From NCBI RefSeq assembly GCF_001677475.2, contig NZ_CP015229.1: a stretch of DNA of 64,000 nucleotides, one strand, 5' to 3'. Positions 49,129 to 63,959 of this stretch are shown here, one piece after another. This DNA is from Escherichia coli (lineage in GTDB: Bacteria > Pseudomonadota > Gammaproteobacteria > Enterobacterales > Enterobacteriaceae). The position numbers and the translations under genes are program-made. Positions within the stretch are counted from its first letter, which is position 1; every line of letters begins with the position of its first letter. Under the pieces are notes generated by a model. That model saw only the letters and a list, made by a program, of their open reading frames with translations, was not told the DNA's origin and did not search any database.

Positions 49129-52002
49129 TTACTGGTATTCGCTAATCGGTACGCAGGAGCAGAACAGGTTACGGTCGCCGTAAACATCATCCAGACGTTT
49201 CACTGTTGGCCAGTATTTGTCTGCCACGCCTGCCGGGAATACTGCAACGTCACGGCTGTACGGATGCGCCCACTCGGCGACCAGTTCGCTCTGAATGTGC
49301 GGCGCGTTCACCAGCGGGTTATCTTCCAGCGGCCAGACACCAGCTTTCACCTGTTCAATTTCTGCGCGGATAGCCAGCATAGCGTCGATAAAGCGATCCA
49401 GTTCCACTTTGCTTTCAGATTCAGTCGGTTCAACCATCAGCGTACCCGCCACCGGGAACGACATCGTCGGCGCGTGGAAACCGTAGTCGATCAGGCGCTT
49501 GGCAATATCCAGCTCGCTGATGCCGGTTTCTTCTTTCAGCGGGCGAATATCGAGAATACATTCGTGCGCCACGCGACCGTCGCGACCGGTATACAGCACC
49601 GGGAAGGCATCCTGCAGGCGGCTGGCAATATAGTTGGCGTTAAGAATTGCCACCTGGCTTGCTTTTTTCAGCCCTTCTGCGCCCATCATGCGGATGTACA
49701 TCCAGCTGATTGGCAGAATGGATGCGCTACCGAACGGTGCCGCAGAAACCGCGCCCTGACGGGTTAACATGCCTTCGATTTGCACCACGCTATGACCCGG
49801 TACAAACGGTGCCAGATGCGCTTTCACACCGATCGGTCCCATACCCGGACCACCACCGCCGTGCGGAATGCAGAAAGTTTTATGCAGGTTAAGGTGCGAA
49901 ACATCCGCGCCAATAAAGCCCGGCGAAGTGATACCAACCTGAGCGTTCATGTTCGCGCCATCAAGGTAAACCTGACCACCGAACTGATGCACGACTTCAC
50001 ACACCTCACGGATCGTTTCTTCATACACGCCGTGGGTGGAAGGATAGGTCACCATGATACAGGAGAGGTTATCGCCCGCCTGTTCCGCTTTCGCGCGCAG
50101 ATCAGTCAGATCGATGTTGCCGTTTTTATCACACGCCACAACCACCACCTGCATTCCTGCCATATGTGCAGAAGCGGGGTTAGTTCCGTGCGCAGAAGCC
50201 GGGATCAGGCAGATATCGCGATGCCCTTCGTTGCGGCTTTCATGATAATGACGAATCGCCAGCAGGCCCGCATATTCGCCCTGTGCGCCAGAGTTCGGCT
50301 GCATACAAACGGCGTCGTAACCGGTCAGTTTCACCAGCCAGTCAGCCAACTGCGCAATCATCTGCTGATAACCTTCGGCCTGTTCCGGCGGGCAGAACGG
50401 GTGCAGTTCGGCAAATTCCGGCCAGGTGATTGGGATCATCTCGGCGGCGGCGTTCAGTTTCATGGTGCAGGAACCCAGCGGGATCATCGCCTGATTCAGC
50501 GCCAGATCTTTACGCTCCAGCGAGTGCATATAGCGCATCATTTCGGTTTCGCTGTGGTAGCGATTAAACACCGGATGAGTGAGGATTTCGTCGTCGCGCA
50601 GCATCGCAGGCTGAATAGAGCGGCTGTCGTGAGCCACGTCTTTGTCCAGCGTGTCGATCTCCAGCCCGTGGTTATCGCCCAGCAGCACGCTGAAAAGCTG
50701 CATCACGTTTTCACGCGTGGTGGTTTCATCAAGGGTGATCCCAACCGCGTTCAGGATATCGCTACGCAGGTTGATTTCAGCCGCTTCGGCACGCGTCAGT
50801 ACGCCCGCTTTGTCGGCCACTTCCACACACAAGGTGTCGAAATAGTGCGCATGACGCAGTTTCAGACCTTTTTGTTGCAGGCCCGCCGCCAGGATATCGG
50901 TCAGACGGTGGATGCGGTTAGCGATACGTTTCAGGCCCACCGGGCCGTGATAAACGGCATACAGGCTGGCGATGTTTGCCAGCAGTACCTGGGAAGTACA
51001 AATGTTGGAGTTCGCTTTCTCACGGCGAATATGTTGCTCGCGAGTCTGCATCGCCATGCGCAGCGCGGTATTGCCAGCTGCATCTTTCGATACACCGATA
51101 ATACGGCCCGGCATTGAGCGTTTGTATTCATCTTTCGCCGCAAAGAATGCCGCGTGTGGGCCTCCGTAGCCCATCGGCACGCCGAAACGTTGCGCCGAAC
51201 CAAAGACAATATCCGCGCCCTGTTTACCCGGCGCAGTTAACAGCACCAGCGCCATAATATCGGCGGCAACGCTGACCACGATTTTGCGTGATTTCAGTTC
51301 GCTGATAAGCGCAGTATAGTCGTGGATTTCACCGGTAGTGCCGACCTGCTGTAACAGCACGCCGAAGACGTCCTGATGATCGAGCACTTTTTGCGCGTCA
51401 TCGACAATCACTTCAAAACCAAAGGTTTCGGCACGAGTACGGACCACATCCAGCGTTTGCGGATGCACATCGGAAGCCACGAAGAAGCGGTTGGCATTTT
51501 TCAGTTTGCTGACGCGTTTCGCCATCGCCATTGCTTCGGCGGCAGCAGTGGCTTCGTCAAGAAGAGAAGCCGATGCCATATCCAGCCCGGTTAAATCCAG
51601 CGTTACCTGCTGGAAGTTGAGCAGTGCTTCAAGGCGGCCCTGGGAGACTTCAGGTTGATACGGAGTATACGCGGTATACCAGCCCGGATTTTCCAGCATG
51701 TTACGCAGGATAACCGGCGGTAACTGCACGGCGGTGTACCCCATGCCGATGTAAGACGTGAAGCGTTTATTGCGACTGGCAATAGCCTTGAGTTCTGCCA
51801 GTGCGGCGTATTCGGTCGCCGGTGCGCCAACCTGCGGCGGAGTCGCAAGCTGAATATCTTTCGGCACAATCTGGCCGGTCAGCGCGTTTAACGATTGTGC
51901 GCCAACGGCATTCAGCATTTCTTGCTGTTGCGCGGCGTCCGGTCCGATATGGCGTTCAATAAAAGCGCCGCTGTTTTCAAGCTGGCTTAACGTCTGTGTC
52001 AT
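49129..52002 (-). CDS. gcvP: glycine dehydrogenase (decarboxylating), glycine cleavage system P-protein
   Basis: Translation from [22 protein letters not shown]; supplied ORF has a 28-codon extension. Confidence 0.93.
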
Positions 52003-52040
52003 GAGCGATGGTTCCTGAAACGTGCAGTGAATTGTGAACC

Positions 52041-52110
52041 TCTCTCCTTGCGAAGAGAGTGAGGGTGAGGCGTAAAAGTTCCTCACCCTGATCCTCTCCC
52101 GCAGAAGAGG
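52041..52110 (-). other. three consecutive hairpins in the gcvH-gcvP intercistronic region
   Basis: CTCTC-n8-GAGAG (52041-52058), AGGGTGAGG-n10-CCTCACCCT (52061-52088) and TCCTCT-n8-AGAGGA (52091-52110). Confidence 0.4.
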
Positions 52111-52120
52111 AATAAAGCCG

Positions 52121-52510
52121 TTACTCGTCTTCTAACAATGCTTCGTATGCGGTCGCATCCAGCAGTGATTCCAGTTCGCTTTCATCGCTGGCTTTGATTT
52201 TGAAAATCCAGCCGCCTGCATACGGTTCGCTGTTCACCAGTTCCGGGGAATCGCTCAGTGCGTCGTTTACCGCCACGATTTCACCGCTTACTGGCGCATA
52301 AATGTCTGACGCCGCTTTTACTGATTCGGCAACCGCGCAGTCATCGCCCGCGCTAACCGTTGCGCCCACTTCCGGCAGGTCAACAAACACCATATCGCCT
52401 AACAGCTCCTGGGCATGTTCGGTGATACCAACGGTGTAAGTGCCGTCGGCTTCTTTACGCAGCCATTCGTGTTCTTTGCTGTATTTCAGTTCTGCTGGTA
52501 CGTTGCTCAT
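52121..52510 (-). CDS. gcvH: glycine cleavage system H-protein (lipoyl carrier)
   Basis: Translation [16 protein letters not shown]; lipoyl-lysine context; start taken at the second ATG of the supplied ORF. Confidence 0.92.
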
Positions 52511-52533
52511 CAATCAATCTCCAAAAAAGTAAA

Positions 52534-53628
52534 TCACGCGACGGCTTTACCGTTACGCACAAAAACAGGTTTCGTCACTTTAACCGGCATTTCACGGTTG
52601 CGAATTTGCACAATCGCTGTTTCACCAATACCTTCCGGCACGCGCGCCAGCGCAATGCTGTAACCCAGCGTCGGGGAGAAAGTACCGCTGGTGATAATGC
52701 CTTCATGCTGGTTGCCCTGCGCATCGGTAAAGCGTACCGGCAGTTCATTACGCAGCACGCCTTTTTCGGTCATCACCAGACCAACCAGTTTTTCTGTGCC
52801 ATGCTCACGCTGCACTTCCAGGGCTTCACGACCGATAAAGTCACGATCTGCCGGTTCCCAGGCGATAGTCCAGCCCATGTTGGCGGCTAACGGAGAAATG
52901 GTTTCGTCCATCTCCTGACCATAAAGATTCATACCCGCTTCCAGACGCAGCGTGTCACGCGCGCCCAGGCCGCATGGCTTAACGCCCGCTTCCACCAGCG
53001 CACGCCAGAAATCGGCCGCTTTTTCATTGGGCAGCGCAATTTCATAGCCCGCTTCACCGGTATAACCAGTGGTGGCAATAAACAGATCGCCCGCCTGCAC
53101 GCCAAAGAACGGTTTCATCCCTTCCACCGCCTGACGCTGGGCGTCATTAAACAGTGTGGCAGCTTTTGCCTGCGCATTCGGCCCTTGTACGGCAATCATG
53201 GAAAGGTCATCACGAACGGTAATTTCGATGCCGAAAGGTTCAGCGTGTTGGGTGATCCAGGAGAGGTCTTTTTCGCGGGTGGCGGAGTTAACAACGAGGC
53301 GGAAGAAATCTTCAGTAAAATAGTAGACGATGAGATCATCTATCACACCGCCAGAGGCATTCAACATCCCCGAGTAAAGGGCTTTGCCGCTTTTGGTGAG
53401 TTTCGCCACATCGTTCGCCAGCAGATAACGCAGAAACTCCCGGGTGCGGCTGCCGCGGAGATCGACGATGGTCATATGTGACACATCAAACATTCCGGCA
53501 TCGGTACGTACCGCATGATGTTCGTCGATTTGCGAACCGTAATGCAGCGGCATCATCCAGCCGTGGAAATCCACCATGCGAGCGCCGCAAAGCGTGTGTT
53601 GTTCGTACAAAGGAGTCTGTTGTGCCAT
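52534..53628 (-). CDS. gcvT: aminomethyltransferase, glycine cleavage system T-protein
   Basis: 364 aa, [33 protein letters not shown]. Confidence 0.93.
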
Positions 53629-54010
53629 CTTGTCCTCATTGAATAAGCGGGGCTGACAACTTTTTCATGGCGAAATTATCACCACGAAACCCAGCATCGG
53701 GGCCACTCCCGGTCCCCAACGCAATCGTTCTCTTTTGTCTGAACTTACCACCGAAACAGACTGTTAACCATAAGGTAAAATTGATCATCACATTAGCTTA
53801 TGGTTAAAAAACGCCAAAATCGCAACAGAATAAAAAACCAAAAAACACACCAGTTTCTATACAAAGATGATGCTATTAGAAAGTTAATTTGAATAAGGCA
53901 ATATTAAGAACTGAAAAAATGTCAAAAAATACTAAATCAAAAAATCATGGCATTAGAAAATATAATGCGAAAACGGAGGTGAAATTAGTTTATTTCAAAT
54001 GAGGAAAATC

Positions 54011-54040
54011 TCCCGGCGAAAAAACCGGGAGATGAAAGTG
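54011..54040 (-). terminator. rho-independent terminator downstream of ubiI: TCTCCCGG-ttttttcg-CCGGGAGA then TTTT (minus strand)
   Basis: Hairpin plus T-tract on the minus strand, about 40 nt after the ubiI stop. Confidence 0.6.
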
Positions 54041-54075
54041 TGATGGGTATCAAATAAACAACAGAGGAAAAATTT

Positions 54076-55278
54076 TTAACGCAGCCATTCAGGCAAATCG
54101 TTTAATCCCATTGCCTGGCGGATAAGTTGCGGCTTAACGCCAGGAAGCGTGTCGGCCAGTTTCAAACCAATATCACGCAGCAGTTTTTTCGCCGGATTGG
54201 TACCGGAAAACAGATCGCGGAATCCCTGCATACCAGCCAGCATCAGCGCCGCACTGTGCTTGCGGCTACGCTCATAGCGACGCAGATAAATGTACTGCCC
54301 GATGTCTTTCCCCTGACGATGCAACCGTTTCAGTTCAGCAATCAGCTCTGCAGCATCCATAAAGCCGAGATTTACCCCCTGCCCCGCCAGCGGGTGAATG
54401 GTATGCGCGGCGTCGCCCACCAGCGCCAGACGATGCGCGGCAAACTGGCGCGCATAACGCCCCGTCAGTGGGAACACCTGACGCGCGCTCTCAACCTTGC
54501 ATAAGCCAAGGCGATTATCAAAAGCGATATTTAACGCGCGATTAAATTCGTCTTCACTTGCCTGCTGCATCCGCTGCGCTTCCTCTGGCGACAGTGACCA
54601 GACAATCGAGCAAAGATGCGGATCGCTAAGCGGTAAAAAGGCCAGAATGCCTTCGCCATGGAAAACCTGCCGCGCCACCGCATCATGCGGTTCTTCCGTG
54701 CGAATGGTCGCTACCAGCGCGTGATGCTGATAATCCCAGAAAGTCAGCGGAATATCGGCTTTGTTGCGCAACCAGGAATTAGCGCCGTCCGCGCCAATCA
54801 CCAGGCGCGCCGTTAACATGCTGCCATCTTTCAGCGTCAGGAAGGTTTCGTTTTCTCCCCAGGCGACCTGCTGTAATTCTGCGGGGGCCAACAGAGTGAT
54901 ATCTGACGACTGATGCGCTTTGTTCCACAGCGCGTAGTGAATCACTGAGTTTTCAACGATATGCCCAAGATGGCTATAGCCCATGCTTTGATCGTCAAAC
55001 GAAATGTGACCAAAACTGTCTTTGTCCCACACTTCCATGCCGTGATAGCAGCTGGCCCTACGAGCGAGAATGTCCTGCCAGACGCCAAGACGGGTGAGTA
55101 ATTTTTCGCTGGCGGCATTGATAGCCGAAACGCGCAGTTGTGGTGGTGCATCCGCCGCCAGAGGTTCCGGTACGCGCTGCTCCAGTACGGCAACGCGTAA
55201 GCCGCTACCCTGTAAGCCGCAGGCAACCGCCAGCCCCACCATGCCGCCGCCAACAATGGCTACATCAACACTTTGCAT
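54076..55278 (-). CDS. ubiI: FAD-dependent 2-octaprenylphenol hydroxylase
   Basis: 400 aa; N-terminal FAD fold VAIVGGGMVGLAVA. Confidence 0.9.
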   Translation of the reverse strand: MQSVDVAIVGGGMVGLAVACGLQGSGLRVAVLEQRVPEPLAADAPPQLRVSAINAASEKLLTRLGVWQDILARRASCYHGMEVWDKDSFGHISFDDQSMGYSHLGHIVENSVIHYALWNKAHQSSDITLLAPAELQQVAWGENETFLTLKDGSMLTARLVIGADGANSWLRNKADIPLTFWDYQHHALVATIRTEEPHDAVARQVFHGEGILAFLPLSDPHLCSIVWSLSPEEAQRMQQASEDEFNRALNIAFDNRLGLCKVESARQVFPLTGRYARQFAAHRLALVGDAAHTIHPLAGQGVNLGFMDAAELIAELKRLHRQGKDIGQYIYLRRYERSRKHSAALMLAGMQGFRDLFSGTNPAKKLLRDIGLKLADTLPGVKPQLIRQAMGLNDLPEWLR

Positions 55279-55300
55279 TGTTTATTCCTTAAAACCGCCT

Positions 55301-56479
55301 TCAACGCGCCACCCAACCGAGGGTGCGCTGCGCCAGCACATCGCGTGCCGGGGTGAATAATTCCATCGTCATCAGCCCGATGTTGCGCCCGACAACCAGC
55401 GGCGTCCAACGGTTGGCAAAAAGATGTACAAGGCTGTCCGTGACGCCAATGGTTGCTTCGCGATCGCTCTGTCGACGCTGCTGATAACGACACAATACGC
55501 CGTAATCACCCATGTCTTCTCCGCGCTCCTGCGCCTGAGTCAGGGTTTCCGCAAGACTCATGACATCTCGCATACCGAGGTTGAATCCTTGCCCGGCAAT
55601 TGGGTGCAGAGTTTGCGCCGCATTGCCCACCAGCACGGTACGATGGGTAATAGGTCTGGCGGCGCGGGTTAACGCCAGCGGATAAGCACTGCGTTTACCT
55701 GCGTGGGTAATTTTCCCAAGTCGCCAACCAAAGGCCGACTGGAGTTCACGGCAAAACTTCTCATCACTCCACGACAGCACCTCTTCGCGCCGTTCCAGTG
55801 GATGACACCAGACCAGCGAACAGCGTCCGTCAGACATCGGCAACATCGCCAGCGGGCCATGTTGTGTAAAGCGTTCAAAAGCGCGCCCTTCATGCGCAAC
55901 GGAAGTCGCAACGTTGGCAATCACAGCCAGTTGTTCGTAAGGCTCCTGCTGCCAGTCAACGCCGCACGCGGTGGCTAACGCTGAATGGGTGCCATCAGCG
56001 GCTACCAGCACGCGGCCCGTCAGCGTCTCGCCACTCTCCAGCGTCACTTCAACGTGACTCTGAGTACGGGCAACGTTAGCCACGCGATCCGGGCAATGCA
56101 GCGTTACGCCAGGTGCTTTTCGCAGCAATGCAAACAGCCGTTGCCCGACATTATGCAATTCGACAACCTGCCCCAGCGCCGCCAGTTGGTAATCTTCTGC
56201 GGCGAGGGTGACGAATCCGGCATGACCACGATCGCTGACATGCACGGTAGTGATGGCGGTTGCGCAATCAGCCAAAGATTGCCAGACGCCGATGCGCGCC
56301 AGTTGCTGACAGGTACCCGCCGCCAGCGCAATAGCTCGTCCATCAAAGCCCGGATGAGCATGTGACTCTGGTGCGGTCGCCTCAATTAAATGAACCGGCA
56401 GCGCCCCGTGACTTAACCGGGAAATAGCCAGCGCCAGCGTCGCGCCCGCCATGCCGCCACCGACGATGATTACGCTCAT
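55301..56479 (-). CDS. ubiH: FAD-dependent 2-octaprenyl-6-methoxyphenol hydroxylase
   Basis: 392 aa; N-terminus MSVIIVGGGMAGATLA. Confidence 0.9.
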   Translation of the reverse strand: MSVIIVGGGMAGATLALAISRLSHGALPVHLIEATAPESHAHPGFDGRAIALAAGTCQQLARIGVWQSLADCATAITTVHVSDRGHAGFVTLAAEDYQLAALGQVVELHNVGQRLFALLRKAPGVTLHCPDRVANVARTQSHVEVTLESGETLTGRVLVAADGTHSALATACGVDWQQEPYEQLAVIANVATSVAHEGRAFERFTQHGPLAMLPMSDGRCSLVWCHPLERREEVLSWSDEKFCRELQSAFGWRLGKITHAGKRSAYPLALTRAARPITHRTVLVGNAAQTLHPIAGQGFNLGMRDVMSLAETLTQAQERGEDMGDYGVLCRYQQRRQSDREATIGVTDSLVHLFANRWTPLVVGRNIGLMTMELFTPARDVLAQRTLGWVAR

Positions 56480-57801
56480 TGCTTTCTCGCAGCTGCCATC
56501 AACGCTTCGATTTCTTCCGGCTTTTTCACCACGCTGGCGGTGAGGTTTTCGTTGCCGGTTTCGGTAATCACAATGTCGTCTTCAATACGAATGCCGATAC
56601 CGCGATATTGTTCTGGCACATCCGCATCCGGCGCGATATACAGACCAGGCTCTACGGTCAGTACCATCCCCGGTTCCAGAATGCGCGAGCGATCCTGACC
56701 ATAAACGCCAACGTCATGGACATCCAGTCCTAACCAGTGGCTAAGGCCATGCATAAAGAAAGGACGATGGGCGTTCTGAGCGATCAGTTCATCAACATCA
56801 CCTTTCAGAATGCCGAGTTTTACCAGGCCGCTAACCATGATACGCACCACTTCACCGGTGACTTCCTGAATGGAAGTTCCCGGACGATACAGGCGCAGGC
56901 TGGTTTCAAGAGACTCCAGCACAATGTCGTAGATTTCACGCTGGGCCTGAGTGAATTTGCCGTTGACCGGGAAGGTGCGGGTAATATCGCCAGCGTAACC
57001 TTTGTATTCGCAACCCGCATCAATCAACACCAGGTCACCGTCACGCAGTTCACACTCGTTTTCGGTGTAATGCAGAATGCAGCCGTTTTCACCGCTGCCG
57101 ACGATGGTGTTGTAGGACGGATAACGCGCACCGTGGCGGTTAAATTCGTGGTGAATTTCGCCTTCCAGATGGTACTCGAACATTCCCGGACGGCATTTTT
57201 CCATCGCCCGGGTATGCGCCAGGGCGGTGATTTCTCCCGCGCGGCGAAGTACGGCAATCTCTTCCGGCGATTTGAACAGGCGCATTTCATGGACCATGGG
57301 ACGCCAGTCGATCATCGTTGCCGGTGCGGTGAGATTTTGCCGCGAACCTTTACGCAGTTTTTCCAGCGCGCTGTTCACGATTTCATCAGCATATGCATAT
57401 TCGCCCTGGGCGTGGTAAACCACATCCAGACCATTAAGTAGTTGATAAAGTTGCTGATTAATTTCGCTGAATGCCAGTGCGCGGTCAACGCCCAGTTTCT
57501 CTGGCGCGGCATCCTGACCTAAACGACGGCCAAACCAGATCTCCGCCGTCAGGTCGCGAACGCGGTTAAACAGAACGCTGTGATTATGAGTGTCATCGCT
57601 TTTAATCAGCACCAGCACCGCTTCCGGTTCGTTAAAGCCGGTGAAGTACCAGAAGTCACTGTTCTGACGATAGGGGTATTCGCTGTCGGCGCTACGTGTT
57701 ACTTCTGGTGCAGCAAAAATCAGCGCGGCGCTGCCGGGTTGCATTTGCTCCACCAGGGCCTGACGGCGACGCTGAAACTCTTGCCGGGATATCTCACTCA
57801 T
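56476..57801 (-). CDS. pepP: Xaa-Pro aminopeptidase (aminopeptidase P)
   Basis: Translation from MSEISRQEFQRRRQAL; M24 peptidase fold; supplied ORF has a 71-codon extension; stop overlaps the ubiH start. Confidence 0.9.
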   Translation of the reverse strand: MSEISRQEFQRRRQALVEQMQPGSAALIFAAPEVTRSADSEYPYRQNSDFWYFTGFNEPEAVLVLIKSDDTHNHSVLFNRVRDLTAEIWFGRRLGQDAAPEKLGVDRALAFSEINQQLYQLLNGLDVVYHAQGEYAYADEIVNSALEKLRKGSRQNLTAPATMIDWRPMVHEMRLFKSPEEIAVLRRAGEITALAHTRAMEKCRPGMFEYHLEGEIHHEFNRHGARYPSYNTIVGSGENGCILHYTENECELRDGDLVLIDAGCEYKGYAGDITRTFPVNGKFTQAQREIYDIVLESLETSLRLYRPGTSIQEVTGEVVRIMVSGLVKLGILKGDVDELIAQNAHRPFFMHGLSHWLGLDVHDVGVYGQDRSRILEPGMVLTVEPGLYIAPDADVPEQYRGIGIRIEDDIVITETGNENLTASVVKKPEEIEALMAAARKQ

Positions 57802-57826
57802 AACACTCTCCTTACGTTTTTTGTTT

Positions 57827-58405
57827 TTAGTGTAGAGTCGGTTTTTGTACTTCTGGCGCGGTCGGTTGCGGATGAGTAAAGGTGTCGTGGCATAACAGCG
57901 CGGCAACACGAACGTATTCGATGATCTCTTCAAGCGACATTTCAAGCTCTTCCTGATCTTCGTCTTCGTCGTAGCCCAGCTGCGCGATGTTACGCAGATC
58001 GTCGATAGCTTCACCGGTTTCTCCGGTCACTTTGTCCAGCTTCGGTTGCGTAACGCCAAGACCAAGCAGGAAGTGATTGACCCAACCTGCCAGCGCATCA
58101 GCCCGATCGAAAACGCTGACATCATCGCCATCAGGCAGATAAAGCTGAAAAAGGAAGCCGTCATCCTGCAGGGCATCGCTGGTGGCAGAGTGCATTTTGC
58201 GCAGTGCCTGTGCCAGCTCATGACCGAAAGCCATGCCTTCGTTCGTCAGGTCGTGAAGTAGCGGCAGCCATGAGCTGTCATCGTTACCGCCACATATCAT
58301 CCCGCTGATTAAACCATGCATCTCAGCAGGGGTCAGACCCGTCCCTTGTTGGTTCAGATACTGGTTCATTTCGTTGTAACCAGGCATTTCGTTCTGTATA
58401 GACAT
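57827..58405 (-). CDS. ygfB: UPF0149-family protein YgfB
   Basis: Translation [17 protein letters not shown]; start could be 2 codons upstream (58411). Confidence 0.85.
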
Positions 58406-58506
58406 AAGCATTCGTCGTCAAAGGGAGGAATATTCATGATATGCTACCACTTTGGGCCCTGGTGGACCAGAAAAGGGCTTGTCTCTTCTCATCAGGGTAG
58501 CTATAG

Positions 58507-58902
<396 letters not shown>

Positions 58903-58943
58903 CACTTTTCGGTTTACTGTGGTAGAGTAACCGTGAAGACAAA

Positions 58944-59128
58944 ATTTCTCTGAGATGTTCGCAAGCGGGCCAGTCCCCTGAGCCGATATTTCATACCACA
59001 AGAATGTGGCGCTCCGCGGTTGGTGAGCATGCTCGGTCCGTCCGAGAAGCCTTAAAACTGCGACGACACATTCACCTTGAACCAAGGGTTCAAGGGTTAC
59101 AGCCTGCGGCGGCATCTCGGAGATTCCC
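58944..59128 (+). ncRNA. ssrS: 6S RNA (SsrS), RNA polymerase-sigma70 regulatory RNA
   Basis: Sequence ATTTCTCTGAGATGTTCGCAAGCGGGCCAGTCCCCTGAGCCGATATTTCATACCACAAGAATGTGG...GGCATCTCGGAGATTCCC matches the 6S RNA sequence as I remember it; ends are approximate to within a few nt. Confidence 0.9.
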
Positions 59129-59201
59129 TTCTTATCTGGCACCAGCCATGACGCAACTACCAGAACTCCCACTGACATTATCCCGACAAGAAATCCGCAA
59201 A

Positions 59202-59750
59202 ATGATTCGGCAACGTCGTCGTGCGTTAACGCCGGAACAACAGCAGGAAATGGGTCAACAAGCCGCTACCCGGATGATGACGTATCCCCCGGTGGTGATG
59301 GCACATACGGTCGCTGTATTCCTCTCTTTTGATGGCGAACTCGACACCCAGCCACTCATAGAACAACTCTGGCGCGCCGGTAAGCGCGTATATCTTCCAG
59401 TTTTGCATCCCTTTAGTGCCGGTAATTTGCTGTTCCTGAATTACCATCCGCAAAGCGAACTGGTGATGAACAGGTTGAAGATCCATGAGCCAAAACTGGA
59501 TGTGCGTGACGTGCTACCCCTTTCCCGATTAGACGTGTTGATCACACCGCTGGTCGCCTTTGATGAGTACGGTCAGCGCCTGGGAATGGGCGGTGGTTTT
59601 TATGATCGGACCTTACAAAACTGGCAGCGCTATCAAATGCAACCGGTGGGTTATGCGCATGATTGTCAGTTGGTGGAAAAACTCCCCGTTGAAGAGTGGG
59701 ATATCCCACTTCCTGCGGTGGTTACACCGTCGAAAGTCTGGGAGTGGTAA
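59202..59750 (+). CDS. fau: 5-formyltetrahydrofolate cyclo-ligase
   Basis: Translation from MIRQRRRALTPEQQQEMGQQAATRMM; the supplied ORF (start 59004) extends back into ssrS and I reject that extension. Confidence 0.85.
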   Translation: MIRQRRRALTPEQQQEMGQQAATRMMTYPPVVMAHTVAVFLSFDGELDTQPLIEQLWRAGKRVYLPVLHPFSAGNLLFLNYHPQSELVMNRLKIHEPKLDVRDVLPLSRLDVLITPLVAFDEYGQRLGMGGGFYDRTLQNWQRYQMQPVGYAHDCQLVEKLPVEEWDIPLPAVVTPSKVWEW

Positions 59751-59810
59751 GGGCGACACACCTGCATCGCCCTGATTGACATCGTTGATTCTTTAACCTA
59801 ATTTAGTGAG

Positions 59811-59950
59811 TAAGGGTAAGGGAGGATTGCTCCTCCCCTGAGACTGACTGTTAATAAGCTGGGAAACTTATGAGTAACAGTACAATCAGTATGATGACAA
59901 GTCGCATCATAACCCTTCTCCTTTAAGCCCTCGCTTCGGTGAGGGCTTTT
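59811..59950 (+). ncRNA. sibC: SibC antisense small RNA (type I antitoxin), cis-encoded opposite ibsC
   Basis: Candidate promoter TTGACA (59776-59781), 17-nt spacer, TAATTT (59799-59804); terminator hairpin AAGCCCTC-gcttcggt-GAGGGCTT plus T-run at 59925-59950; fully overlaps ibsC on the opposite strand; ends approximate. Confidence 0.7.
59851..59910 (-). CDS. ibsC: IbsC small hydrophobic toxic peptide (19 aa), type I toxin
   Basis: Minus strand ATG ATG CGA CTT GTC ATC ATA CTG ATT GTA CTG TTA CTC ATA AGT TTC CCA GCT TAT TAA translates to MMRLVIILIVLLLISFPAY; too short to appear in the supplied ORF list. Confidence 0.8.
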   Translation of the reverse strand: MMRLVIILIVLLLISFPAY

Positions 59951-60138
59951 CCGTTACAGCCCCATGCTGCCCTGCCATCGTAAATCCCCATTAAATAAAC
60001 ACAACGCATTGATCTGACTTTGATTTATTTTCTGGAGCAGACTCGCAAAGTAGAATGCGCAACGCGGCAACGGTGTGGAGAAGGGATAAAAAAACGGGCA
60101 AGTCAGTGACCTGCCCGTTGATTGTCAGAGAAGGGGAA

Positions 60139-61371
60139 TTAGTACAGCAGACGGGCGCGAATGGTACCCGGAATAGCTTTCATTGCCTGCAGCGCTTTTT
60201 CGGCAACGTCTTCGTCGGCTTCAATATCAATAACTACATAACCCATCTGGGCGGAAGTTTGCAGATATTGCGCGGCGATGTTGACCCCCTGCTCGGCAAA
60301 AATTTTGTTGAGCGCAGTTAGCACGCCCGGACGGTTTTCGTGGATGTGCATCAGACGACGCCCACCGTGCAGTGGCAGCGAGACTTCCGGGAAGTTCACC
60401 GCAGAGAGCGTTGAGCCATTGTCAGAGTACTTGATCAATTTACCCGCAACTTCCAGGCCGATATTCTCCTGCGCTTCCTGAGTCGAACCGCCAATGTGTG
60501 GCGTCAGAAGAACGTTGTCGAATTCACACAGCGGAGAGGTAAATGGATCGCTATTGGTCGCCGGTTCCGTCGGGAATACGTCGATTGCCGCCCCCGCCAG
60601 ATGTTTGCTCGCCAGCGCGTCACACAGCGCTGGAATATCCACCACAGTACCGCGCGAGGCATTAATTAGCAGCGAGCCGGGCTTCATTAGTGAAATTTCT
60701 TTCGCGCCCATCATATTTTTGGTGGACGGATTCTCTGGTACATGCAGACTCACCACATCGCTCATATTCAGCAGGTCAGAAAGATGCTGTATCTGAGTGG
60801 CGTTGCCTAGCGGCAGTTTGTTTTCAATATCATAAAAGTAAACATACATTCCCAGCGATTCAGCCAGAATGCCCAATTGCGTACCAATATGACCGTAGCC
60901 GATGATACCCAGCTTTTTGCCGCGCGCTTCAAAAGAACCCGCCGCCAGTTTGTTCCACACGCCACGGTGCGCTTTAGCATTGGCTTCCGGCACGCCGCGC
61001 AATAGCAGCAGCAGTTCGCCAATCACCAGCTCCGCAACAGAGCGAGTATTTGAGAACGGTGCGTTAAATACCGGGATACCGCGTTTTGCCGCCGCATCCA
61101 GATCAACCTGGTTTGTTCCGATACAGAAACAGCCAATAGCGACCAGTTTTTCTGCGGCGTTGATCACGTCTTCAGTCAGATGGGTACGGGATCGCAGGCC
61201 GATGAAGTGGGCATCGCGGATGGATTCTTTTAATTGTTCATCATCCAGCGCGCCTTTGTGAAATTCGATGTTGGTGTAACCAGCTGCACGAAGGCTTTCC
61301 AGCGCCTTTTGGTGCACGCCTTCTACCAGCAGAAACTTAATCTTGTCTTTCTCCAGCGATACCTTTGCCAT
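60139..61371 (-). CDS. serA: D-3-phosphoglycerate dehydrogenase
   Basis: 410 aa, MAKVSLEKDKIKFLLVEGVHQKALESLRAAGY; C-terminal regulatory (ACT) domain. Confidence 0.93.
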   Translation of the reverse strand: MAKVSLEKDKIKFLLVEGVHQKALESLRAAGYTNIEFHKGALDDEQLKESIRDAHFIGLRSRTHLTEDVINAAEKLVAIGCFCIGTNQVDLDAAAKRGIPVFNAPFSNTRSVAELVIGELLLLLRGVPEANAKAHRGVWNKLAAGSFEARGKKLGIIGYGHIGTQLGILAESLGMYVYFYDIENKLPLGNATQIQHLSDLLNMSDVVSLHVPENPSTKNMMGAKEISLMKPGSLLINASRGTVVDIPALCDALASKHLAGAAIDVFPTEPATNSDPFTSPLCEFDNVLLTPHIGGSTQEAQENIGLEVAGKLIKYSDNGSTLSAVNFPEVSLPLHGGRRLMHIHENRPGVLTALNKIFAEQGVNIAAQYLQTSAQMGYVVIDIEADEDVAEKALQAMKAIPGTIRARLLY

Positions 61372-61626
61372 TTACCCAATCCTGTCTTTTGAAATGTTGT
61401 GTGCGGATTTGCGTCCGCCTTTCAACATATCAAAAAATAATATTGCGGCAATATGAACGTTTGCGTCGCGATGTTGAGGAAATATCACGCAAAGGTAATT
61501 ATTGGATGAATATGCTGGTTTAGAGGATTTATTTAGAGCAATCGACAATAGCCAGGTAAAAACGTGACACATGTCACCAAATTTAATGAAGAGAATTTTT
61601 TTAACGGGGGAGGTTCCCCCGTCAGA

Positions 61627-62286
61627 TCATTTCACAATGGTTTTGACACCGTCAGGTGTGCCAATCAGCGCAACGTCCGCGCCACGGTTAGCAAACAAGC
61701 CAACAGTCACCACGCCAGGAATCGCATTTATGGCGTTTTCCATCGCTATCGGGTCAAGGATTTCCATGCCGTGGACGTCGAGGATCACGTTGCCGTTATC
61801 GGTCACCACGCCCTGACGGTATTCCGGACGACCGCCCAGTTTCACCAGCTGGCGCGCCACTGCACTACGTGCCATCGGGATAACTTCTACTGGCAGCGGG
61901 AATTTGCCCAGAATATCAACCTGCTTGGAGGCGTCGGCAATACAGATAAATTTTTCCGCAACCGAAGCAATGATTTTTTCACGGGTCAGCGCCGCGCCGC
62001 CGCCTTTGATCATTTGCATGTGGCCGTTGATTTCATCTGCGCCATCAACGTAGATGCCAAGGCTGTCGACTTCGTTGAGATCAAAAACGTGAATGCCGAG
62101 GCTTTTCAGTTTTTCAGTGGAAGCATCTGAACTGGAAACGGCCCCTTCAATCTGGCCTTTCATTGTACCGAGCGCGTCAATAAAGTGTGCGGCGGTGGAA
62201 CCTGTACCTACACCAACAATGGTGCCGGGCTGAACATACTGAAGTGCCGCCCATCCTACTGCTTTTTTCAATTCATCCTGCGTCAT
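61627..62286 (-). CDS. rpiA: ribose-5-phosphate isomerase A
   Basis: Translation from [31 protein letters not shown]; supplied ORF has a 12-codon extension. Confidence 0.92.
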
Positions 62287-62368
62287 GATCGTTTCGCCTG
62301 TGGTATGAAATTTCACACGCATTATACTCTAAATAATTCGAGTTGCAGGAAGGCGACAAGAGAGTGAC

Positions 62369-62471
62369 AAATTCGTCAGGAACGAATTTGCCCAGCCGCA
62401 GGCTGGCCTTCGGTGAGAGACATGGATGTCTCTCATTAATCCCCAGGAGCTTACAGAAGTAAGTGACTGGG
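62369..62471. other. cluster of four consecutive hairpins in the rpiA-argP intergenic region
   Basis: CAAATTCGT-cagga-ACGAATTTG (62369-62390); CCAGCC-gca-GGCTGG (62392-62406); GAGAGACA-tgga-TGTCTCTC (62415-62434); CCCCAG-n19-CTGGGG (62441-62471). Confidence 0.35.
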
Positions 62472-62862
62472 GTGAGCGAACGCAGACGCAGCACATGCAA
62501 CTTGAAGTATGACGAGTATATACAAAAAAAGCGATTCAGACCCCGTTGGCAAGCCGCGTGGTTAACTCATCCATAAAATATCGCGCAATGGCGGGCATCC
62601 CCTTTCGCCCGGCAAATAAAGCATACAACGGTCTGGGTATGCCGCTCCACGGTGCGAACAGAGGCAATAACGCCACGCCATTCAACATAACCAGGGCGCG
62701 AAGTCGCTAAGCGAAATGCAATAGCGCAAATCCCTGATCTTTTAAGCTGCGCGTTTAACCATTGATACAAATGTTACCCACCGACGGCTTCGGTATATGC
62801 AACCTGACACAAAATTGTGTCATAGTGCAGGAAAAAGCATTTACCAGGAGCAGACAACAGCA

Positions 62863-63756
62863 ATGAAACGCCCGGACTACAGAACATTACAGGCACTGGA
62901 TGCGGTGATACGTGAACGAGGATTTGAGCGCGCGGCACAAAAGCTGTGCATTACACAATCAGCCGTCTCACAGCGCATTAAGCAACTGGAAAATATGTTC
63001 GGGCAGCCGCTGTTGGTGCGTACCGTACCGCCGCGCCCGACGGAACAAGGGCAAAAACTGCTGGCACTGCTGCGCCAGGTGGAGTTGCTGGAAGAAGAGT
63101 GGCTGGGCGATGAACAAACCGGTTCAACTCCGCTGCTGCTTTCACTGGCGGTCAACGCTGACAGTCTGGCGACGTGGTTGCTTCCGGCGCTGGCTCCTGT
63201 GTTAGCTGATTCGCCTATCCGCCTCAACTTGCAGGTAGAAGATGAAACCCGCACTCAGGAACGTCTGCGCCGTGGCGAAGTGGTCGGCGCGGTGAGTATT
63301 CAACATCAGGCGCTGCCGAGTTGTCTTGTCGATAAGCTCGGTGCGCTTGACTATCTGTTCGTCAGCTCAAAACCGTTTGCCGAAAAATATTTCCCTAACG
63401 GCGTAACGCGTTCGGCATTATTGAAAGCACCTGTGGTCGCCTTTGACCATCTTGACGATATGCACCAGGCCTTTTTGCAGCAAAACTTCGATCTGCCCCC
63501 AGGCAGCGTACCGTGCCATATCGTTAATTCTTCAGAAGCGTTCGTACAACTTGCTCGCCAGGGCACCACCTGCTGTATGATCCCGCACCTGCAAATCGAG
63601 AAAGAACTGGCCAGCGGTGAATTGATTGACTTAACGCCGGGGCTATTTCAACGCCGGATGCTCTACTGGCACCGCTTTGCTCCTGAAAGCCGCATGATGC
63701 GTAAAGTCACTGATGCGTTGCTCGATTATGGTCACAAAGTCCTTCGTCAGGATTAA
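62863..63756 (+). CDS. argP: LysR-family transcriptional regulator ArgP (IciA)
   Basis: Translation from [43 protein letters not shown]; supplied ORF has a 22-codon extension. Confidence 0.92.
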
Positions 63757-63769
63757 TCCATCAAATAAT

Positions 63770-63800
63770 GCCTGATAGCACATATCAGGCGTTATCCTCA
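63770..63800 (+). terminator. rho-independent terminator GCCTGATA-gcac-TATCAGGC followed by a T-rich run, after argP
   Basis: 8-bp inverted repeat read directly. Confidence 0.55.
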
Positions 63801-63959
63801 CTTCTTTTTGTATTCCTTGAAACACATCACAAAATAGACAAATCTCAGGCGGCAAAAAACGACGTCTGAATGCATTTTTTTTGCTGGAGACAAACCCACG
63901 TAAAAAGCTCACCGTAAGCGCAAATACCCTCATTTTGATTGCGTTTTACGGAGCAAATA

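Follow-up and report, generated by a model that had tools for sequence, protein, structure and literature searches.

The repeats named ERIC, IRU or RU-1 have been known since 1990-91 (Sharples & Lloyd 1990; Hulton et al. 1991; reviewed in PMC2229807 and PMC3184786), and duplication of a TA target has been described for them (PMC2229807). This report concerns a copy in the spacer between the divergent genes rpiA and argP of Escherichia coli, together with a 71-nt module nested inside it, as found in a stretch of 64,000 nucleotides from contig NZ_CP015229.1 (assembly GCF_001677475.2), here called the window. Insertions of about 70 bp in ERIC that preserve its fold were reportedly described in 1997, in work by Sharp and by Cromie and colleagues, and an article of 2006 by Wilson and Sharp is said to be a further source on this long form. 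A preliminary description of the spacer, made from its letters alone, had pointed to four consecutive stem-loops and a short open reading frame (ORF), and had explained the former as a repetitive element that has decayed, as a leader or as a structured small RNA. We find that the structured stretch is very probably a selfish mobile repeat, ERIC plus the nested module, rather than a regulator specific to the locus, and that the ORF is an artefact of reading a relic of the gene yqfE in the wrong frame. The feature is already known in kind, since ERIC inserts of this size were reportedly published in 1997, and as an ERIC with a known type of insert beside a yqfE relic it is ordinary.

An ERIC element with a nested insert upstream of rpiA

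Aligned to the 127-bp E. coli consensus for ERIC/RU-1, the minus strand of 62323-62520 matches from the first base to the last with a single gap of 71 nt, and the Salmonella sequence SeRU-1 likewise aligns end to end with the same interval, with one 71-nt gap (both reference sequences from PMC2759123, Table 1a). The element owes its length of 198 nt to this internal insert, which is exactly the gap against the consensus and also against the plain ERIC that strain CFSAN018748 carries at the same locus. Coordinates of the element, the insert and other features are collected in Table 1. The ends of the element read TATAC...GTATA. The orthologous site of E. coli K-12 is empty, with TATATA becoming TATA-[element]-TATATA in the window; written out, CATTATATACAAA of K-12 corresponds to CATTATAC...ERIC...GAGTATATACAAA of the window, which fits a TA target duplication, the target being a TA run within which the exact boundary is ambiguous. 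The same kind of duplication is seen near panC, where ACT-TA-ACTGG becomes ACTTA-[element]-TAACTGG. By megablast, an E. coli genome has ERIC at 6 places (median), the window copy lies between genes, and a peptide motif derived from ERIC, NSNYLEY (quoted in PMC2759123), recurs in a window ORF. All of the features looked at that define ERIC/IRU/RU-1 are thus present, namely the consensus, the inverted repeats and fold, the TA ends and target, and the multicopy, intergenic and strain-variable occurrence.

The spacer measures 577 bp (62286 to 62864), matching the 576 bp given in the preliminary description, and the four stem-loops are where that description placed them. The first (62368-62376/62382-62390) and the second (62392-62397/62401-62406) are perfect stems of 9 and 6 bp. 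The third (62414-62423/62426-62435) had been credited with 8 bp and is longer, its arms being perfect over 10 nt and folding into an 11-bp stem. The fourth (62441-62454/62459-62472) has 14-nt arms that are 79% complementary, with a perfect outer CCCCAG/CTGGGG. A 25-nt terminal inverted repeat (62323-62347/62496-62520, 80% complementary) brackets all four and had been missed. Such a density of structure had been called unusual, and it is far beyond chance (z about -9 for the 199-nt fold): the plus strand of 62323-62521 folds at -86.1 kcal/mol against -49.1 +/- 4.1 for shuffles (z -9.1, 0/200 as good), and the minus strand at -80.3 kcal/mol (z -8.9, no shuffle of 200 as good). In the predicted minimum free energy (MFE) structure the ERIC ends close into one long stem-loop on both strands. 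Folded alone, the insert, taken as 75 nt, has a z of -5.4 on the plus strand and -6.2 on the minus strand. Stem-loops one to three make up the insert, and the fourth is the central palindrome of ERIC. The insert itself is a module whose hairpins we number 1 to 4. Its hairpins 1 and 2 are the first and second stem-loops and its hairpin 4 is the third; its hairpin 3, shortened in the window copy, is placed by model alignment and does not form in the MFE fold.

The rpiA site was surveyed in 5,426 complete E. coli genomes, whose best identity to the last 12 kb of the window (52000-64000) is 98.2-98.4%, with identical gene order. The window seems to belong to an Escherichia lineage, such as a Shigella or a divergent phylogroup, that complete RefSeq genomes of E. 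coli lack. Most of the records listed or examined lack the element, as K-12 does. At least 53 genomes, CFSAN018748 among them, have the plain 127-bp ERIC at this site, and seven assemblies (four of E2348/69, plus VCSW5, VCSW7 and AST215) have an ERIC with two inserts, while the one-insert form of the window occurs in 0 of the 5,426. In E2348/69 and AST215 the second insert is related to the first and lies at another ERIC site; that of E2348/69 is 78 nt long, at GAGCGA^. Alleles with no, one and two inserts have an identical ERIC backbone, private substitutions included, and therefore are states of one resident copy.

The insert also has a distribution of its own. The same 71-nt sequence, at 97-100% identity and at the same ERIC position, GAGTGA^ATCCCC, is found at three further E. 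coli loci: between panC and rpnC in O157:H7, near ybfA, and upstream of gyrA. The panC-rpnC locus repeats the series seen at rpiA, being empty in K-12, occupied by plain ERIC in 2020CK-00188, and by ERIC with a module 100% identical to the window's in O157:H7. Altogether 615 of the 5,426 genomes contain the 71-nt insert, usually once, and 649 contain the second insert type; the two types share a common architecture with compensatory differences in their stems. Budvicia has a module like type 2 at the "left" ERIC site, and Yersinia has one four bases away from the "right" site of E. coli, positions that point to independent insertions. The insert behaves as a mobile unit in its own right, gained or lost exactly and independently of ERIC.

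With both elements identified, and empty and filled sites at hand, we infer the following order of events. An ERIC of 127 bp entered the (TA)3 run upstream of rpiA in one E. coli lineage, and the 71-nt module would later have been placed inside the resident copy, between GAGTGA and ATCCCC. The module is probably moved in a site-specific way for which it has to be folded, and since it has no gene of its own it must depend on an activity encoded by the host or by another element. Both elements would be selfish and non-autonomous, with nothing at the locus depending on them; local effects, such as an altered context for the rpiA promoter or a structured segment in a transcript, would be side effects. 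What remains of the spacer is yqfE, the 3' end of a LysR-family gene, which decayed after deletion of a small island had left it behind.

A module family across Gammaproteobacteria

A pattern made of the letters common to the two insert types was scanned against one genome per species, for 100,044 species, and matched at least 120 loci where about 3 matches are expected by chance. Two of these (Desulfosudis and Pseudooctadecabacter) look like chance, and at least 118 loci, with modules of about 65-85 nt, belong to Gammaproteobacteria of many orders, a taxonomic range that is a lower bound. Hosts among Enterobacterales include Escherichia, Citrobacter, Yersinia, Serratia, Hafnia, Brenneria and Budvicia, and those among Alteromonadales include Rheinheimera, Alishewanella, Arsukibacterium and Pseudoalteromonas. 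Others are Halomonadaceae, Cellvibrionales, Methylomonas/Methylobacter, Methylophaga, Lysobacterales and Gilliamella. Our covariance model of the module, R1, finds 133-137 copies in about 0.9 Mb of loci, and in the 64-kb window a single match, at 62366-62440 (74.4 bits, E 2e-14).

Counted over 64 diverse copies, at positions left free by the scan pattern, 96.5% of cells are paired, and 229 cells carry double-sided changes, where shuffles give 64 +/- 7 and slid controls 12-57. Pair 76:89, for instance, is GC in 22 copies, CG in 18, AU in 11 and UA in 8, and is unpaired in 3. In hairpin 4, four stem pairs show 25-43 double-sided changes each among the 64 sequences. Hairpin 2 could be judged only by eye, the MAFFT alignment there being too poor for pair counts; all family members have at this position a hairpin, variable in sequence and length. 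A further 33 matches of R1 lie off the scan pattern; these have all four hairpins, with covarying pairs in the outer stem of hairpin 1, and retain GGA in the hairpin-1 loop (31/33) and the hairpin-4 loop (32/33). Variants of the latter loop are CAUGGAUG, CAGGGAUG, CAGGAUG, CAGGAAG and CAGGGACG. The consensus module begins, directly after the [G/C]A of its site, with CAAAU-stem-CNGGA-stem-AUUUG, followed by RAC, hairpin 2 and G; it continues with hairpin 3 (CCCGnAGGG), YGAG and hairpin 4 (loop CA(N)GGA(N)G), and ends in NNRUAA. By these counts the structure of the module is under selection across a bacterial class. The preliminary description had made conservation of the stems a check on its suggestion, and the outcome is divided: at the rpiA locus the stems are not conserved, whereas those of its first three hairpins covary across Gammaproteobacteria as parts of a mobile module.

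Modules insert precisely. Directly ahead of them stands A in 122 of 123 copies, preceded in turn by G or C in 115 of 123; comparison of filled with empty sites gives exact presence or absence, with no target duplication, and the module has neither terminal inverted repeats nor a gene of its own. The sites, often GA^AUC(C), lie in several kinds of DNA: in ERIC (GTGA^ATCC and GCGA^); in CGTC-type REP hairpins (GCCGGA^ATCC) of Rhodanobacteraceae and Lysobacteraceae; in YPAL-like repeats of Rheinheimera, Alishewanella and Arsukibacterium; in duplicates resembling a tRNA T-arm (GGTTCGA^ATCC...CCA or TTCGA^TTCC) just downstream of genuine tRNA or tmRNA genes; and in the hairpin-3 loop of another module (CCCGA^A). 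Modules form arrays, such as five copies within 600 nt after a tRNA-Gln gene. They are found between convergent genes more often than between divergent ones (21 against 6), and show no strand bias relative to neighboring genes (21 sense, 20 antisense). A scan of 2.9 million viral contigs gave 1 match; the module is therefore not borne by phages.

No gene that might mobilize the module was found linked to it. In an all-against-all BLASTP of 3,115 ORFs from 120 loci no protein family occurred in more than 9 loci, and no transposase of any kind, Y1 HUH enzymes included, recurs in the roughly 1 Mb of module flanks. Nor was a longer parent element bounded by hairpins 1 and 4 seen, every hairpin-1 match being part of a full module. 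None of the publications reached in a literature search by sequence string and keyword, which covered the relevant work incompletely, describes the module outside ERIC, its range in Gammaproteobacteria, the [G/C]A^ rule, self-nesting or the arrays at tRNA and tmRNA genes; the wider family may be under-described. RU-3 (Delihas 2007) was considered as its identity and rejected, being a REP/BIME-like sequence.

Several contexts deserve separate mention. The "GGTTCGA...ATCC...CCA" surroundings were considered as tRNA or tmRNA genes and rejected, as ARAGORN and Rfam call only the genuine genes upstream; at gathering threshold, Rfam finds in 12 module-bearing loci only tRNA, tmRNA and one TwoAYGGAY, the last beside the modules and not on them. 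At four loci, downstream of genuine genes for tRNA (Gln, Ser, Tyr), there stand one or more incomplete duplicates of the gene's T-arm and 3' acceptor end, some with the terminator as well, and in each duplicate the T-loop is split at TTCGA^ATCC by a module. Two metagenome-assembled genomes, one of Rhodanobacteraceae and one of another gammaproteobacterium, have a pseudo T-arm directly 3' of tmRNA, split by about 270 nt that hold two modules and further hairpins with GGA loops (CAGGAUG, CAUGGAUG, CAGGAAUG). This array recalls the sponge RNAs of the Csr/Rsm systems, but it has no GacA box. In three species of Halomonadaceae, at an orthologous site, a module in sense orientation follows the TGA stop codon of one gene and precedes the ATG of the next, 7 nt downstream. 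Judged by this arrangement, these are the clearest case in which a module must be part of an mRNA. In Gilvimarinus, TwoAYGGAY scores 45 bits against a threshold of 43 beside modules, and its core matches the CAUGGAUG pair of Yersinia YPAL/RU-2. The host repeat in Rheinheimera weakly matches the Yersinia small RNA Ysr224.

The yqfE remnant and the 67-aa reading frame

At the position orthologous to the remaining spacer, K-12 is annotated with the pseudogene yqfE (b2915), whose 76-aa product matches the Pfam family LysR_substrate (PF03466) at positions 151-208 of 209, with 29.4 bits. The frame of window ORF 62536-62688 aligns to residues 235-298 of an intact LysR protein of 298 aa from E. coli VCSW7. 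The window sequence is a pseudogene fragment and not a member of the LysR family. It resembles the K-12 copy in its position between rpiA and argP, its frame and its remnant of the C-terminal substrate domain; it differs in a 45-bp deletion, costing 15 further residues, and in a stop codon where K-12 has Gln. VCSW7, a rare case in E. coli, retains an intact island here, with genes for the LysR regulator, an FMN-dependent NADH-azoreductase, a protein of the YdgH/BhsA/McbA family and a ferredoxin reductase. Because VCSW7 keeps the intact LysR gene with its neighbors at this very spot, yqfE is the stump left by deletion of the island.

The minus-strand ORF noted earlier is present as an open frame, with 67 open codons from a TTG start, and RefSeq records "hypothetical protein" ORFs in the rpiA-argP spacer of some strains. 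That it encodes a small protein is nevertheless scarcely credible. A Pfam search of it finds no family at E<=1, it overlaps out of frame a sequence conserved as a LysR C-terminus in a region that K-12 annotates as a pseudogene, and the 45-bp strain indel falls inside it. BLASTP finds no similarity between it and K-12 YqfE, and thereby exposes the error of frame. The RefSeq ORFs differ from strain to strain, are found on one strand or the other over ERIC or the remnant of yqfE, and are probably annotation artefacts of a similar sort.

Nearer to argP, an inverted repeat of 15 nt with a 2-nt spacer (TGCAACCTGACACAA/TTGTGTCATAGTGCA) is conserved in four aligned strains, which makes it a candidate operator or promoter element for that gene.

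Table 1. Features of the window and of other loci referred to in the text (L numbers are our locus handles)
Feature	Sequence	Coordinates	Strand	Remarks
ERIC/IRU (RU-1) miniature inverted-repeat element	window	62323..62520	-	published consensus strand; 127-bp backbone + 71-nt insert = 198 nt
ERIC left terminal inverted repeat TATACTCTAAATAATTCGAGTTGCA	window	62323..62347	.	pairs with 62496-62520; outer stem of predicted fold
ERIC right terminal inverted repeat TGCAACTTGAAGTATGACGAGTATA	window	62496..62520	.	25 nt, 80% complementary
ERIC central palindrome CCCCAGGAGCTTAC/GTAAGTGACTGGGG	window	62441..62472	.	fourth stem-loop; within 127-bp consensus
Nested four-hairpin module (CAAAU...AUUA)	window	62368..62438	+	between GAGTGA and ATCCCC of ERIC backbone; boundary ambiguous by 1 nt
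Module hairpin 1	window	62368..62390	+	first stem-loop; 9-bp stem, loop CAGGA; inner stem pairs covary across family
Module hairpin 2	window	62392..62406	+	second stem-loop; 6-bp stem CCAGCC/GGCTGG
Module hairpin 3, shortened GCCUUCGGU	window	62406..62414	+	usual family form GCCCGnAGGGY; family pairs columns 51-54/69-72
Module hairpin 4	window	62412..62437	+	third stem-loop; 11-bp stem, loop UGGA inside CAUGGAUG
yqfE pseudogene remnant	window	62536..62721	-	last ~61 codons of LysR-family gene; 15-codon in-frame deletion (junction 62660/62661), internal stop
67-aa ORF	window	62567..62770	-	out-of-frame reading across yqfE remnant; TTG start
Inverted repeat TGCAACCTGACACAA/TTGTGTCATAGTGCA	window	62798-62829		35-66 nt upstream of argP start codon
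rpiA	window	ATG ends 62286	-	flanks spacer; serA also among flanking genes
argP	window	ATG at 62864	+	other flank of spacer
Intact island of E. coli VCSW7	L129	2355-4379		orthologous to window 62536-62860
RefSeq "hypothetical protein" ORF	L001	1791-1976
RefSeq "hypothetical protein" ORF	L008	416-616
TwoAYGGAY/Ysr224 locus	L056	3397-3501	-
TwoAYGGAY/Ysr224 locus	L011	4945-5062	-
Partial tRNA copies with modules	L094	11060-11830		modules also nested mutually
Partial tRNA copies with modules	L014	8117-8521
Partial tRNA copies with modules	L093	10420-10730
Partial tRNA copies with modules	L089	2130-2460
Pseudo T-arm 3' of tmRNA, with modules	L054	4110-4470
Pseudo T-arm 3' of tmRNA, with modules	L050	1434-1680
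Halomonadaceae module	L029	3118-3194		sense
Halomonadaceae module	L043	1726-1802		sense
Halomonadaceae module	L068	167-243		sense

Alternative readings and relation to known systems

A dedicated small RNA, or a structured 5' leader regulating rpiA or argP, would be in keeping with the very stable predicted structure, with the place of the element 36 bp upstream of the rpiA start codon, where its end restores the TATAAT hexamer found in K-12 at the point of insertion, and with weak alignments to small RNA families of Rfam from Yersinia, Vibrio and Salmonella. We regard this reading as highly improbable. The whole 198-nt element is missing from K-12 and from most E. coli genomes listed or examined, in which rpiA and argP are intact; further strains hold it with 0, 1 or 2 inserts, and it occurs at unrelated loci too. 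At the region no family of Rfam 15 reaches its gathering threshold, the best being V_AS5 at 22.7 bits (threshold 96), Ysr49 at 14.5 (95) and isrH at 10 (45), and these matches align to the ERIC arms only, arising from ERIC sequence embedded in the three families. The hexamer, read directly and unscored, remains an unscored observation because a promoter scan of the window region and of K-12 gave no promoter-like site by the criteria of the tool, and the sole terminator-like site of the region, hairpin 1 read on the minus strand, is within chance expectation; the literature search gave no paper on where transcription of rpiA starts. Ysr49, Ysr224, V_AS5 and part of isrH, listed in Rfam as small RNAs, seem themselves to have been constructed from ERIC or YPAL repeats. 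Of the explanations offered in the preliminary description, which is partly supported, the repetitive element comes closest; "decayed" does not apply, since both the ERIC and its nested insert are intact.

Two further readings concern the module, and we give them roughly equal, modest probability. CsrA sites are hairpins with GGA in the loop, usually paired, and the TwoAYGGAY RNA has been proposed to bind CsrA (PMC4333381). The module, with two conserved GGA loops (CNGGA and CA(N)GGA(N)G) matching that motif, might thus be a portable CsrA/RsmA-binding unit whose loops a CsrA dimer could clamp together; transcribed or tandem copies would titrate CsrA or put an adjacent mRNA under Csr control, which in the window would be relevant only if the plus strand of 62368-62438 were transcribed. 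As sequence, the window copy conforms, with a CAGGA loop at 62377-62381 and CAUGGAUG at 62421-62428. GGA is kept in the off-pattern matches, and one pair position is G-U in 69 cases against A-C in 5, favoring the strand with GGA. TwoAYGGAY (Rfam clan CL00106), its core made of CAUGGAUG hairpins, is found above threshold 120 nt from the Gilvimarinus modules, while arrays of multiple GGA hairpins downstream of tRNA and tmRNA genes include modules and the three Halomonadaceae carry theirs in sense between stop codon and ATG. We nonetheless think such a role unlikely. Orientation is unbiased relative to co-directional neighbors, and with one column excluded the mismatches (G-T 22, A-C 14) barely favor a strand. 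None of the 15 GacA/UvrY boxes (TGTAAG-N6-CTTACA, at most 2 mismatches) found in about 1 Mb with 133 modules lies within 500 nt of a module, and no promoter-like site was found in the window region, where the module points away from rpiA and no Csr/Rsm family matches at E<=10. The GGA loops could equally be the recognition site of a mobilizing protein. In the other reading, the module is a miniature single-stranded DNA transposon of the IS200/IS605 or REP/RAYT kind (palindrome-associated). A Y1 HUH transposase with its gene elsewhere would bind the end hairpins on one DNA strand, cut behind a short sequence matched by a guide, and paste the module 3' of [G/C]A. Such a process would explain why the target is not duplicated, why excision is precise and why hosts that form hairpins (ERIC, REP, T-arm-like DNA) are preferred. 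As in IS200/IS605-type palindrome-associated elements and REP-RAYT insertions, the module enters directly 3' of a short sequence, lacks terminal inverted repeats, shows exact presence or absence, and has hairpins (1 and 4) at its ends; it is non-autonomous, nests in palindromic repeats and in its own kind, bears NGGA in both terminal loops, as if one dimeric protein bound the two ends, and is enriched between convergent genes, as is true of REPs and MITEs (miniature inverted-repeat transposable elements). This origin, too, we consider doubtful, given that no transposase recurs in the flanks, that no longer element bounded by hairpins 1 and 4 was seen, and that the hairpins at the two ends are unlike in sequence and in the length of their stems. 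IS608 has a 5' guide, for which the module, its hairpin 1 starting at the first base, leaves no room. Hairpins 2 and 3 are conserved as well, although transposon ends do not usually need such parts.

Returning to the reading of a selfish ERIC with a nested mobile module, several points weigh against it or temper it. Selfishness and lack of local function are read from presence/absence polymorphism. The element inserted on a TATAAT-like hexamer, so that an effect on rpiA expression, and hence selection, is possible. Entry of the second module was not clean: forms with no or one module have A as the flanking base, and C stands after the module. Instead of repeated insertion or excision at the locus, homologous recombination could have carried the alleles with 0, 1 and 2 inserts from strain to strain, or gene conversion from other ERIC copies could have produced them; the data show precise gain or loss of the module, and mechanism and direction lie outside them. 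The scan pattern fixed CAAAT/ATTTG, GGA and CATGGATG, and the conservation of these is therefore partly built in; independent evidence comes from the free stem positions and the 33 off-pattern matches, the latter biased by the model. Lastly, the ORF calls behind the statistics of gene context and orientation were crude.

For annotation, the run of hairpins and the "ORF" are to be read as a mobile repeat and a pseudogene remnant, not as a small RNA, leader or protein gene. The rpiA site also offers a natural allele series (empty, ERIC, ERIC with one module, ERIC with two modules) in near-isogenic context, close upstream of a gene in an essential pathway, convenient for measuring the effect of ERIC and its inserts on an adjoining promoter or 5' region. 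The module family is a side result worth following. We propose tentatively, as a claim that could well fail, that the "ERIC insert" is no peculiarity of ERIC and belongs to a family, spread over Gammaproteobacteria, of very small, non-coding, self-nesting modules. Compensatory change would preserve their four hairpins, of which the two at the ends display CsrA/RsmA-type GGA loops, and within ERIC, CGTC-type REPs and DNA resembling the T-loop of tRNA and tmRNA they would enter exactly behind [G/C]A. The family's existence and mobility are well supported, the CsrA link is putative, and the family may already have been published. If the proposal is right, a very small, autonomous-looking unit would scatter paired CsrA-type sites or build multi-GGA arrays by tRNA and tmRNA genes, and would be a tractable mobile element whose mobilizing machinery and possible CsrA binding are directly testable.

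Among known systems, IS200/IS605 elements and REP/REPIN-RAYT resemble the module in being short, non-coding, hairpin-ended and inserted 3' of a short sequence near palindromes, but no linked Y1 transposase was found in its flanks, and its four hairpins with conserved loops are unlike the ends described for those elements. The likeness appears to be one of behavior, and membership in these families is not supported. The repeats of CsrB present GGA in a CAGGA(U/A/C)G-like context, as in the loops of the module. Paired GGA hairpin loops are shared with CsrB, CsrC and RsmX-Z (motif in PMC4333381), from which the module would differ in being mobile, in lying in either orientation, and in having two GGA loops per unit without a GacA/UvrY-dependent promoter. 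YPAL/RU-2 of Yersinia, TwoAYGGAY (RF01731) and Ysr224 share hairpin loops of the form CA(U/A)GGAUG and a MITE-like, multicopy, intergenic occurrence. They differ from the module in size (168 nt) and overall architecture, the module having in addition a hairpin 1 with CAAAU/AUUUG and, at its center, two small hairpins; in window 62200-62950 TwoAYGGAY has no match at E<=10, with AUGGAU present in hairpin 4 only and CAGGA in hairpin 1. From ERIC/IRU/RU-1 nothing essential differs: the backbone, inverted repeats, TA termini and target, intergenic position, stem-loop, copy number and strain-variable presence are all shared, and the window copy is simply the long form. That long form reportedly has, at one specific internal site, some 70 nt of inserted sequence that leave the entire element well folded, and the inserts seen here, 71 nt at GAGTGA^ATCCCC at four loci and 78 nt at GAGCGA^ in E2348/69, retain the fold in the same way. 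Where the earlier reports are said to deal with ERIC only, although the overlap may be larger, the module is here traced outside ERIC and outside Enterobacterales.

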